Positions 3,340 to 63,452 of a stretch of DNA of 64,000 nt are shown here, in pieces. The DNA lies in the NCBI GenBank assembly GCA_951406725.2, contig OX597817.1, positions 106,330,001 to 106,394,000 of the forward strand, in the 5' to 3' direction. Both the position numbers and the translations under genes were made by a program. Positions within the stretch are counted from its first letter, which is position 1, and every line of letters begins with the position of its first letter. This DNA comes from Octopus vulgaris (Eukaryota). Below the pieces are notes generated by a model. That model had not been told where the DNA came from, ran no database searches, and was given only the letters and a program-made list of their open reading frames with translations.

Positions 3340-4300
3340 GGTAGGTACGTACATATATGTTTATATATATGCATATGTTTTATTTCATTTATTAATATAT
3401 TATATGACTAAACGCACGCACCCTCTTAAGTAAGATTGTTCTGTATATCAAGTTTTTGTCTTGATATTAACTCTCATGCGCACTCTTCACCTTTCTGTCC
3501 AATCCCTATTCTTTGATTTTCTTTTTCCCCCACTTAACTTGTCTCTTCCTCTCTCTCTCATTCTTCACTCTCTCTCTCCCCCTCACCATTCTTCATGGTC
3601 TCCTTGCAGCCTTTCCCCATCTTCTCTCCCTTCCCCTTGCTCCTCCTCCCCCCTTCCCGTCGTCCACCCGCGATGATACTTCCGCCCTGACTGTCTTTTT
3701 GACCTGGCCTTCAAGGTAACTGGACGACATTCTTCCTGCTCTCCTGTCATTCACAAAAAATTCTGCGTTTGCAATACTTTTTTCGTTAGGCGTCAACAGC
3801 CCTTCCTATCTTGTTTTTCCCTGTCCTGTCTTTTACTGTTATATTTTTTTACTGTTTATATTTTTTACTGTTTATATTTTTTTACTGTTTATTTTTTTAC
3901 TGTTTATATTTTTGTACTGTCGTTACTGTCCTGTTTTTTTACCATTTTTTTACCCCTCTGCGAAAAGATCTCAGAATTTTAATTGATTTGCTTTTCGCAG
4001 GAAGGAAAGTTTCTTGTCGAAGATACGTCTCGCTTTTATCCTTCAAAACGTAGAGTAGATGAAACCTTAGCGACTGAAGAAGGGGTTTTTTCGTTGTGTT
4101 AATGGTCCTGTACTTCATTTTTTGTTGTTTTTAAAAAAATGTCCAGTTCCTTTGGTTTGTGTCTATGTTTTCGTTTCTCTTTGTGTTCGACGTCCCTTTG
4201 GTGTCCTGTACTCATATATGCGTGTATATGTACATGTAGAGGTAGGTACGTACATATATGTTTATATATATGCATATGTTTTATTTCATTTATTAATATA
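3340..4300 (+). mobile_element. Putative non-autonomous Penelope-like element with terminal direct repeat, carrying permuted hammerhead copy 1
   Basis: About 60-bp direct repeat GGTAGGTACGTACATATATGTTTATATATATGCATATGTTTTATTTCATTTATTAATATAT at about 3340 and 4241. The 3' part is homologous to about 63290-63590 and (inverted) about 20760-21050. Internal (TTTTACTGTTTATATT)-like tandem repeats at 3830-3915. Penelope assignment is inference. Confidence 0.55.
3952..4086 (+). ncRNA. Non-circularly permuted hammerhead ribozyme, copy 1 (G12A, probably inactive)
   Basis: TACG-TC-TCGCT (4024-4034), then AAAA-CGTA (4045-4052), then AGCGA-CTGAAGA (4069-4080). Stems I and III each pair 5/5. Confidence 0.7.
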
Positions 4301-4403
4301 TATATATATATATGTATGTATATATATATATATATATATATACACAAAATGGCTGGCGGTTAGTAAGGAGAGACACACAAATAAGAAAGAAGAAAGCAAA
4401 GGA

Positions 4404-4443
4404 CCACTGATGCGGTCACAGGCATGTGACGAAAGAACTCTGG
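4404..4443 (+). ncRNA. Minimal type I hammerhead motif (A9C variant)
   Basis: CCA-CTGATGC-G-GTCACA ggca TGTGAC-GAAA-GAAC-TC-TGG; same family as 44544-44588. Confidence 0.6.
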
Positions 4444-5412
4444 CTGAAATAAGATTAAGATTAATGTAATAAATAAATAACACTGAAGCAAAGTAACACC
4501 AAATATATAGTGCATGTGTTTTTATTGGCTAAACTGGCAAAATGACCATTCCGAAATACAACAATATATAAATATATATATGTATGTATGCATGTATTTG
4601 TATATATATGTGTTAGTGTTGTACTTGTCCTCAACTGCCATTTAACAACTAGTGGTAGTTTGTTTTCATCCCATAGCTTAGCAGTTCACCAAAAAACACT
4701 GACAGAATAAGTTCTAGGCTTAAAAATCGGTACTGAGATCAATTTGTTCAACTAAAACCTTTCAAGGCAGTGCCCCAGTATGACCACAGTCTAGTGAATG
4801 AAACAAGTAATTAATTAAGCAGATTAGTGATCTTTTTTTGTGTAGTATTATTATTATTGAGTGAGAGAGTAATGCATGCCATCAAAGTGGCACTGGGTTA
4901 CAAATATACGAAACCCAATATACCCATCATCACCACCCGTCTGATAAGAGTACACCAGGCACACGCATCACAATCATATGTACATGACATGGTGATCTCA
5001 TATCAAGATAAACTGCACATGACCTTGTAGGTGGAGCCCAGTTAGTATTTTCTTCAGGTCAAGTAGTTCATCCCACTCAAAAGGTCTTTGAATGAGGGTT
5101 GTTTAAGGATGATGAATAAAACACCCATGTTTCCAGAGGTGAATTATTCAAACCCCATAGAATTCCCTCAACACATAGCTACGATGCTCCCCCACTACTT
5201 CTGCTTGTGATCAATGATGCACATATCGGCAGCAACTAAGGGACATGCTCAAGTGATTAAGGTTAAGCAACTGACAAGCAAGTCTGTGGTATAGAGCAGA
5301 ATATTTGCTGTAGTTCATCTTTTTATACCAAAACAAAATATGTACATGATCACACTTCAAATCAGTTAAGATCAGAAGCCATGAGAGCCAGTGCCTGATA
5401 CTGCATCAGGGC

Positions 5413-60475: not shown

Positions 60476-62652
60476 ACTGGCTGCGCCAGACAAGGGCAAA
60501 CCTGGCATCACAAAATTTAAACTTAGTGTGTCGATATTCGTGAACTAAATTTCGTAGAAGTCACGTTTTTATCGAAATATTTCTGTGACAGATTTCAATA
60601 CTTTGTCGCTGTAATGCATCTTTCATTCCAGTTTGATACAGGAATCAGCGGATATGTCTCGTAAATATCTTCCTTTGATTTCCACTTTGTTTCCTCTTCT
60701 ATCATGACTGTTTTTGCATCTCAATGATTTTCATATATACTGAGCAAAATCAGTAATTTTTTTTGATCGATTAGCGAGCACGGAACATTGAATTTGGTTG
60801 CGACCTGTTGTTTAGCTCCGATTAGCACCATTGATAAATTTACTCCTTTTATCCATATCTCTGTGAAGATACTCTACTAACCTTTTGCTCACTTATTGCG
60901 TACGAATACGCATTTTGCTGCCTCCTGAGCATACAAGCTTCTCATTTTACGTAGTCATTATCTCGCAGTGAAGTCATGTCTTGTCCTATTCTCCTTTTGT
61001 TCACAAGAGAATCTCACATTTTTATTTGCTGGTTGTAAAGAAATATGGTTACTGTCTACCCTTCTTTCTCTCCAAGGTAAGCTTGTTTTACTAATTCATA
61101 TTGTTCCCTAATGTTTCATATATTTTCTTTAATGTACAAGTATAAGAGGCGGGGAGATAAAGGTTCTCTTGATCTGGGCAAGGTTCTATTTTAAGTTGGC
61201 AGCAAATTCGCGTGAAAGACTTCGATTAAAGACTGAGCGATTGTTGTGGCCAGTTTTTCTCGCCGGAGACGCTAGCTTTCCGACAATCAGTATTCGTTAA
61301 AACCACGGCCCAAATTTTACTCGTGATTCCTGCTATCACATGTTTTTCTGAACATTCTTTTATTACCCTTAGAACATCATTGTGATACAAGATTGCATGA
61401 ATCATTTGGTTCTGATTTGTAATGAACGGGCGTATGTAAATGCAGTTATATATGATGTTGACAAATTATCCGACATATTGAAAGAGTATGTAGACTGGTT
61501 TGATGGATGTTGAATGATTGTTAGAGTTGTATTTGGCTCGTGCTGTTTCTCATATGCAACCAAGTTTATTTAAGATTTGTTTTTTATGAGACCACTTTTT
61601 ATACATAACTTTACAATATTTACAACGGTAGCTTACTGGAGGCTGTATCATTGATTATCAGTAAAAAGATATGAATATATGGTGTGCTTTGGTTAAGAAT
61701 TTAACGGCCACTCGTTCATTTTGTGAGAGACGGGAAAATTATATTTTCATGATGAACAAACGATTCTTTTTAACCTGAGTTTGAAAAGCTACCAAGAATC
61801 CTGAAAGCCTTGAAACTTCTACGCTGATTATCTCGTGTTTCTATATTTATAAGCATGTTTTGATGGGGAAAATCATAGAAATTCCACCAGAAAACGTACA
61901 ATAAAATGATCACAGCTGAAATATGATTGGTTAAAATTCAAAGTAAGTCGTCTGATGTGGTGTGGCCTATTTCTCGTTACAGGGCTAACGCAGTTTCGAT
62001 TCTACACCTCGCAACATGTAATTCTCGTCAGCTCTCAGCACCTCAAAAATGCTATTAAATAATATAATTTCGCTTTCACTAATTTTTGCAGCAGTTTTGT
62101 TATTGCACTAGCATTATTTATAAGTTTTAGCTCGATTATATTATTAATTAGCTTAAATCAACTTGTTCTATGATTAAAAGCATTTATTTTTTTGGTGGGT
62201 GGAATGTGAAATCTTTCCCCAGCGAATAGCTCAAGTTCTGCCTCAGTCTAAACCACGACAAATTTCGCCGCACGTCTACGTGTACAAATGTAATTTAAGT
62301 AGTCTTTGTGTTTTCTTTGTAAGTTGTCTTGGCTGTTTGGATAGTAAGCTGAATATACAAAGATTGCCCAAAGTCCGACTCGTTGGTTCTTGTTATCGCC
62401 TTACTGCGAACCTTCCTCATAATTAGCAAAATATTATTGCTTTTTTGGCTGAATTAAATTTAGGCTGGGAAAATAAAAATACCTCACTGTAAAAATATTT
62501 GTTTACTTAAAAACGTAATGTCAAAATAATGTGTGTTTATTTTTGGTGTTTATTAATGTGTCAAGCTGCTGTGTTAGCAGACTTTTTGTTGTTTTGTAAA
62601 CAAGTACATTTATAAGCAATCCATTAATTCTTTGTTACAGATCTACTCTATA

Positions 62653-63072
62653 ATGGATATACGACAATGTATTAGAAAAAAGGCTTGCTGAAGCTACAGA
62701 AGATGCTGAACATTCACGAAATTCAAGTGTCAGCTTCTGCAGAATTCCAGTATTTTTACGGTTTTTGATTCAACAACAGTTTGACGCCAAGTGGTAACAA
62801 GAGAGATCAGAATGTGACAGATACTGAAAGACAAATAGTCAAGCTGTACAGTTGTGAGGAATCGAAAAATCTTCCACTTGAAAAGATTTCCTTCACTCTT
62901 GCAGTTGATGTTTCTAAGACGCTTGACGTTCAGCTCATTCGATATCCTCATCCTGCAGACGCTAGCATCAACAAAAGTGATTTTTATCTTCTCAATCGCG
63001 GCTCAGAAAACTCCCATAAAAATTCACTGCAGTTTTATGAATTATGTCCATCTATGGTGTATTGTATATCAG
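62653..63072 (+). pseudogene. Possible hAT (TTF-finger type) transposase N-terminal remnant
   Basis: Acceptor-like TTCTTTGTTACAG (to 62640), then MDIRQCIRK.., frameshifted to ..SLQFYELCPSMVYCIS; truncated by (TA)n. Confidence 0.3.
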
Positions 63073-63323
63073 AATATATATATATATATATATATATATA
63101 TATATATATATATATATATATATATATATATATATATATATATATATATGTGTGTGTGTGTGTGTGTGTGTGTGTGTGTGTGTGTGTTGTAGCTGAAACA
63201 AGGAAGACGTGTTCTTTTTTGTCTCCTATCTAAGCTTGATTTACGCGTTCGCCACCGCAACCTCATCTAGACTCAGCAGCCCTTCCTGTTTGTTTTCACT
63301 GTCCTGCATGTGTTACCAATTTT

Positions 63324-63452
63324 GACCCTCCGCAAAATCCCAAATTTTATTTAATTTGCTTTGCGGGAGCAACTGTTTTATCGAAAGCGTATATTGTTGT
63401 TAATAGCTCGAAATACGAGATTAGAAAAACAGCCAACAACTGATGAAGGGTC
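63324..63452 (+). ncRNA. Non-circularly permuted hammerhead ribozyme, copy 2 (intact core)
   Basis: CGTA-TA-TTGTTG (63388-63399), then GCTC-GAAA-TACG (63406-63417), then CAACAA-CTGATGA (63434-63446). Stem I pairs 6/6 and stem III 5/5. Confidence 0.8.

Follow-up and report, generated by a model that had tools for sequence, protein, structure and literature searches.

We analyzed a 64,000-nt stretch of the Octopus vulgaris genome (the window; coordinates are window positions unless a contig is named) together with its source genome (G000; 2.8 Gb in 227 contigs). The window contains three dispersed loci, each carrying the letters of a hammerhead ribozyme in a non-circular order inside a short non-coding element (Table 1). 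An initial annotation had described six helices common to all three copies. We observed that all 36 of its quoted arms lie where it had placed them and that 17 of the 18 helices are exact reverse complements, the sole inexact one being stem III of copy 3, for which one mismatch had already been noted. The three loci also align outside the motifs and are thus homologous beyond them; non-homology had been named beforehand as one of two findings that would refute the claim. The ribozyme regions of the three copies are 68–76% identical, and the top 40 genomic matches of each copy, among ~3,000–4,200 first-look candidates per copy, show 86–96% identity; each window copy is a member of a separate family (c1, c2 and c3). 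A profile built on 30 genomic copies gave exactly three matches in the window (E values 1e-41 to 1e-55). Copy 2 alone of the three passes the strict core descriptor. Copy 1 has A at the G12 position, where the other copies have G, and its ribozyme is predicted to be inactive. Nested folding, a model that leaves pseudoknots outside, gave z-scores of −1.8, −2.6 and −3.1 for the three copies.

Table 1. Copies of the candidate ribozyme, their carrier elements and an associated intron-like stretch in the window
Feature	Position	Strand	Description
Copy 1 element, family c1	3339–4299	+	Single non-coding unit of ~900 nt with a terminal duplication of 60 nt (3339–3398 = 4240–4299), in (TA)n
Copy 1 ribozyme fold	3952–4086	+	Outer helix 3952–57/4081–86; hairpin A 3958–4000; helix B 4001–06/4039–44; stem III extension 4009–13/4061–65; stem III 4024–28/4048–52; stem I 4030–34/4069–73
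Copy 1 core		+	Predicted cut 4029/4030; CUGAAGA 4074–80; G12 replaced by A at 4045
Copy 2 element, family c2	63186–63604 (limits approximate)	+	5′-truncated
Copy 2 ribozyme fold	63324–63452	+	Core intact; outer helix 63324–29/63447–52; hairpin A 63330–66; helix B 63367–70/63406–09; stem III extension 63373–79/63426–32; stem III 63388–92/63413–17; stem I 63394–99/63434–39
Copy 2 core		+	Predicted cut 63393/63394; GAAA 63410–13; CUGAUGA 63440–46
Copy 3 element, family c3	20806–21146 (limits approximate)	−	Truncated
Copy 3 ribozyme fold	20871–20998	−	Decayed; predicted cut 20933/20932; stem III mismatch; 3-nt insertion after CUGAUGA (20881–87)
Putative intron-like stretch in copy 1 unit	3430–3609	+	AG/GUAAG donor, pyrimidine tract and CAG acceptor, read from sequence

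The carriers are units of 832–906 nt with no open reading frame (ORF), an AT-rich fixed 3′ end, a variable 5′ end and (TA)n targets. They form partial tandems, including one four-unit array (G000:C1:18816357-18818880; period 832 nt, no mismatch among the units compared), and inverted pieces occur. Repeats inside a single insertion had no mismatches in four of six arrays and 1–2 in the remaining two; such identity fits rolling-circle copying of one RNA, and later tandem duplication would fit it too. In being non-coding partial tandems with a fixed 3′ end, a variable 5′ end and microsatellite targets, the carriers show the traits of non-autonomous Penelope-like elements or retrozymes; excerpts of Craig et al. 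(PMC8557442) give partial tandems, 5′ truncation and (TA)n targeting as the Penelope-like insertion pattern. The core pattern of families c1–c4 had at least 5,199 exact matches in G000 and the 3′ anchor of the c1 clade at least 3,461, with none for the reversed control in either case, and the c1 family is young (98% identity). The initial annotation had taken three copies in 64 kb to suggest a high-copy family. These counts bear it out, although the local density overstates the genome average: an evenly spaced 400 kb contained two partial profile matches, no strict descriptor match and one copy of a related family, and the window is richer in copies than the genome at large.

From 5′ to 3′, the core blocks follow one another as cleavage site, GAAA and CUGANGA, which is the non-circular S-G-C order. 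The first half of the element's fold consists of an outer arm, hairpin A, a helix B arm, the stem III extension, GAA, a stem III strand with H, and a stem I strand. After a short linker come the second helix B arm with GAAA and a stem III strand, AGUA, the extension, a stem I strand with CUGANGA, and the other outer arm. The permuted hammerhead core that had first been proposed is supported; the non-circular order and the absence of the usual stem II had been missed. Of 161 copies that had been preselected by stems I and III, 156 have intact core letters, with N7 variable and H17 either A or C, and H17 is G in one. The base that follows A9 is predicted to find its partner upstream and the base preceding G12 on another upstream strand, with hairpin A exactly filling the gap. 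We infer a fold in which helix B stands in for stem II, with an upstream G pairing with C11.1, and A9 runs directly into the outer helix; the outer helix, hairpin A, helix B and the core would then meet as a four-way junction without unpaired bases. Stem III is predicted to be extended across the conserved GAA/AGUA internal loop, which we take to resemble the loop E (bulged-G) motif. Judged by its sequence, the RNA should work like a hammerhead ribozyme, in a retrozyme-like element that depends on Penelope, and belong neither to types I–III nor to the standard SGC type, because its stem II is not direct. An Rfam search of the window had no hammerhead among 132 matches at E values up to 1; it returned only miRNA and small nucleolar RNA matches driven by microsatellites.

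More families with unrelated stems and the same topology were found in flanks, namely c4, c5, c6 and a Naiad-type family (c5, c6 and variant families at L052, L053, L054, L171, L296 and L300, with a c5 tandem period of 866 nt), and a pattern for the Acropora motif matched 120 metagenome loci, referred to below as the coral-type family. The junction is perfect in 98 of 116 copies of c1–c4, in 24/30 Naiad-type copies, in 4/7 of c5 and in the single copy of c6, and it forms in 10 of the 14 coral-type loci with an exact S block. A junction score of at least 13 was reached by 125/245 real sequences versus 67/735 controls with shuffled upstream sequence, the best junctions in some decayed copies being spurious.

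Next to the letters of the core, covariation supports this structure. In an alignment of 14 copies over the c1–c4 subfamilies, with the structure drawn from one of them, 93.1% of the cells were paired and 13 of the 26 pairs had changed on both sides. The covariation score was 0.419 versus 0.224 in shuffles (0/500 as high), controls that take no account of kinship among copies, and slid controls were 42–49% paired. Stems I and III were paired in 95.7% of cells each, with two-sided changes in 3/5 and 4/5 pairs, and the extension helix, misregistered for c2 and c3 in this alignment, scored 76.8%. In the outer helix and helix B taken together, five of ten pairs showed a two-sided change, and nearly all pairs were Watson–Crick. 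The earlier proposal of selection on RNA structure in the source lineages is supported by this covariation. That of compensatory changes in all six helices stands for pairing between subfamilies, but the outer-helix and hairpin-A changes of copy 3 are private: its outer-helix 5′ arm occurs in a single one of 30 family copies, copy 3 itself, and the commonest arms in the family are those of copy 2. Hence, the apparent compensations of copy 3 in these two helices are not lineage-level.

A second pairing has to be weighed here. With one base skipped, a direct stem II forms in 116/116 copies of c1–c4 and 26/30 Naiad-type copies, and an extra base after A9 is tolerated by some natural hammerheads. 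The RNA could then be an ordinary type-SGC hammerhead, with a four-way junction that is inactive or belongs to a switch of conformation. We consider this unlikely. An unshifted direct stem II of at least 2 bp was absent from all 154 copies of c1–c4, the Naiad-type family, c5 and c6, and even with one base skipped it was impossible in c5 (0/7), c6 (0/1) and the coral-type family (0/14); c5 and the coral-type family still show the pile-up of 5′ ends described below. The position following A9 holds A, U or C depending on the family, yet its upstream partner is kept, and the almost wholly Watson–Crick pairing of helix B and the outer helix, with its two-sided changes, points the same way.

The compactness of the fold bears on another arrangement, modelled on the minimal Penelope hammerheads, which are strand-exchanging dimers. 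Neighbouring units, or two RNAs, might swap strands into type I or III hammerheads, which would make the order within the monomer incidental; the elements do occur in tandem, and dimer-dependent cleavage is described for animal retrozymes in the excerpts of PMC7229834. However, neighbouring units are separated by 830–900 nt. Every helix, even the extension around the S and G blocks, closes inside a single 130-nt stretch, and joining units does not bring back a circular order. We regard an active dimer as very improbable.

We observed that the 5′ ends of genomic copies pile up at the predicted cut and just after it. The core pattern picked up 93 copies, of which 28 start no more than 21 nt upstream of G12. 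A 3′ anchor, used to remove the bias of the core pattern, yielded 96 copies, all within the initial 72 Mb of contig C1. In this sample, 16 of 69 at-risk copies start between −2 and +14, a hazard of 0.0136 per nt; elsewhere the hazard was 0.001–0.003 over the 200 nt downstream (0.0016) and 0.002–0.003 farther 5′, and the 40 nt immediately 5′ of the cut had a single start (0.0005). The Poisson probability is ~1e-9 for 15 independent starts, with one inverted pair counted once. The c5 copies show the same pile-up, judged by eye. In the coral-type family, from which 18 copies were dropped for contig ends, 56 of 102 copies start at −1 to +10, 11 of them at +1, with five starts from −4 to −17 and none from −18 to −28, which makes a sharp edge 5′ of the cut; the search pattern of this sample begins at +11, it has no downstream control, and some loci may count twice. 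The pile-up is explained if the cut forms the 5′ end of the template and a few bases are lost when the new copy is joined. Since all the hammerhead letters are present and copies often start at the predicted cut, the RNA likely cuts itself. At L337 (680–766), a single case, the 3′ tail of a Neptune-like element (87% identity to its window copy at 47935–49400) runs directly into a c1 copy at the predicted cut site, a chimera such as a template jump would produce.

The same ends could be read otherwise, as products of reverse transcriptase (RT) stalling or microhomology joining on an RNA that does not cut but serves as a recognition or protection element for the retroelement protein, either derived from a hammerhead or only like one. 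Such an element would be in keeping with the absence of a textbook stem II, the many copies that read through and the offset of the G000 start peak from the cut. We reject stalling at helices or microhomology as sufficient, because neither predicts an edge at that bond, and the coral-type family has its sharp edge between −1 and +1. No start peak was found at stronger helices or at the AT-rich hairpin loop, and the catalytic letters are kept while every stem is rewritten, across families and phyla. A non-cutting element seems quite improbable to us.

The ribozyme architecture also leads to the Naiad elements. Excerpts of Craig et al. (PMC8557442) report no canonical hammerhead in Naiads and eight 'half core' cases, octopus included. 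In snippets that cover part of the 54 published consensi, read by eye, nine clearly combine the S-G-C order with an outer helix, a hairpin A and a helix B (Obim, Ovul, Amil, Aacu, Anas and four without names in the snippets); Bfor is weak, one more has S-G-C with a long linker, and within these snippets the squid Esco does not fit and none is clear in bivalves. Five nematode Naiad consensi (File S5 of the same paper, seen in part) read by eye as type-CSG with a true stem II, a permutation otherwise known from two metagenomic sequences. In G000, the octopus Naiad-motif pattern had 300 matches and its control none, and near-identity to the published octopus Naiad consensi by itself suggests an octopus genome. 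Of 41 Naiad-type copies, a sample partly ascertained through the RT, 9 have sense-strand RT remnants with a YIDD motif 0.8–1.5 kb upstream, and relatives of these remnants include a 958-aa protein with an N-terminal GIY-YIG and a C-terminal RT (367 protein matches). The ribozyme design of c1–c5 is common to the Naiads and was probably inherited from them. What they are seen to share is the architecture; a blastn comparison of c1–c5 with two G000 Naiad loci gave no match outside the fold.

The search for a partner RT covered several routes. The initial annotation had expected a Penelope-type partner, and the link holds for the Naiad-type copies with their upstream RT remnants. No Naiad RT match was present upstream in 35 coral-type copies with 900 nt of upstream sequence, no c1–c4 ribozyme stood in the corresponding position at 20 low-identity Naiad RT matches, and word-based protein searches with Naiad RT pieces and a scan of metagenome proteins gave no match. 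A GIY-YIG search of G000 gave 148 matches, and the loci that were read belong to a Neptune-like element, with a 781-aa ORF carrying a C-terminal endonuclease, and its relatives. A role as the partner was not supported for this element: it has no sequence in common with c1–c5, and a CUGANGA-type core was absent from the sense-strand 3′ region at 28 of 30 loci. At L181 and L182 the Neptune-like element, which has many 781-aa open frames in G000 and an open frame of 359–400 aa ahead of them, likewise lacked CUGANGA in the part of its sense-strand 3′ region that was read.

Taken together, the sequence, the block order, the covariation, the copy number, the partial tandems in (TA)n and the 5′-end pile-up lead us to read the three loci as dispersed copies of 0.8–0.9 kb non-coding retroelements that bear S-G-C hammerhead letters, whose predicted fold replaces stem II by a four-way junction, and that are likely self-cutting; we put the probability of this reading at roughly 0.7. 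In the life cycle that we propose, tandem transcripts would be cut once per unit, and part of the monomers would be ligated into circles. Reverse transcription from the AT-rich 3′ tract would be primed at (TA)n by a Penelope-type RT/GIY-YIG protein provided in trans. On cut linear RNA, the RT would run out at the cut and leave short copies starting 0–12 nt after it, whereas on a circle or an uncut tandem it would read through, giving whole ribozymes and partial tandems with identical repeats.

Several points weigh against a self-cutting four-way junction, in addition to the disregard of kinship in the shuffles and the limits of the coral-type sample. In the window's own c1–c4 families, the four-way junction is not the sole possible fold, the direct stem II with one extra A being paired in 98.2% of cells, with one two-sided change and about half of the cells G-U. 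Only two of the 16 hot-spot copies in G000 start at the cut itself, the mode being +5 to +12, so end loss must be assumed; 53 of the 69 copies read through the predicted cut, so uncut or re-ligated RNA is needed. For the Anolis Penelope, excerpts of PMC11167929 state that hammerhead cleavage is dispensable for insertion in vitro and that no reads ended at the site. A partner RT for c1–c5 was not found in these searches: none of 98 c1–c4 copies with at least 900 nt upstream, and none of 11 c5 copies, has a Naiad RT match. The Naiad remnants in G000 are all broken, while c1 is young.

Other features of the window were also noted. The putative intron-like stretch of copy 1 has counterparts in c2 and c3, where a donor-like AAG/GUAAG and an acceptor-like tract recur at matching places and appear to be conserved in all three families; it recalls the intron in the 5′ untranslated region of Penelope. 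The sequencing-run contigs that were searched, none of them listed as RNA, showed no splice join of this kind. On the minus strand, 47935–49400 holds a Penelope-like element that is 5′-truncated and keeps a GIY-YIG remnant at its C-terminal end (28% identity to the 781-aa ORF) and a degenerate minimal type-I-like hammerhead near 48040–48070. Beside it lies an inverted truncated piece (47760–47935), which accounts for an Rfam miRNA-like hairpin in the window. Directly 3′ of copy 2, the segment 63620–64000 reads by eye as the C-terminal part of a LINE reverse-transcriptase ORF.

We compared these elements with known systems. Type-SGC hammerheads (HRIMA-1 and variants; PMC10085705) are alike in the S-G-C order, two pseudoknots, a short linker between stems I and II and the core letters. 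They have an uninterrupted Block C and no multi-stem junction, and the predicted octopus and coral-type fold departs from them in both respects, although c1–c4 taken by themselves fit either pairing. Naiad elements (PMC8557442) are alike in (TA)n targeting, partial tandems, 5′ truncation and, by eye, the same ribozyme architecture at the 3′ end, but they encode an ORF with an N-terminal GIY-YIG and an RT, whereas c1–c5 encode no protein. Animal non-LTR (long terminal repeat) retrozymes (PMC7229834; 10.64898/2026.07.22.740005) are likewise non-coding tandem units with a hammerhead, tied to Penelope-like elements; theirs are type I hammerheads in units of 170–400 nt, whereas the octopus elements measure 830–900 nt and are dispersed, truncated partial tandems. 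Neither Rfam nor type I descriptors pick up the non-circular ribozyme of the octopus. According to Eckert et al. 2023 (PMC10085705), the non-circular 'SGC' order was not found in genomes of known organisms. Searches of the literature outside subscription papers gave no report of SGC, CSG or four-way-junction hammerheads in retrotransposons and had 'type-SGC' in one paper only, and the excerpts of PMC10162972, PMC7936874 and PMC13725137 describe no such junction.

Beyond the octopus, and with somewhat less confidence, we favour the view that a self-cleaving hammerhead with a seventh topology, made of four blocks, is present in the Naiads of octopuses, corals, jellyfish and arthropods and in their non-coding passengers, that the nematode Naiads carry the CSG order, and that germ-line cleavage is recorded in the 5′ ends. 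The list of six possible hammerhead permutations, resting on three unbreakable blocks, had been regarded as closed, and the four-way fold would break one of these blocks. Non-circular ribozymes would move from anonymous metatranscriptomes into animal genomes, in thousands of copies, and, if this is true, they would be among the most abundant ribozymes of some animal genomes. It would also account for the Naiads having seemed hammerhead-free, a stated puzzle, and would weaken the case for ribozymes being dispensable to Penelope-like elements. The 5′-end pile-up, as read from genomic sequence, may be a rare read-out of ribozyme cleavage in retrotransposition.

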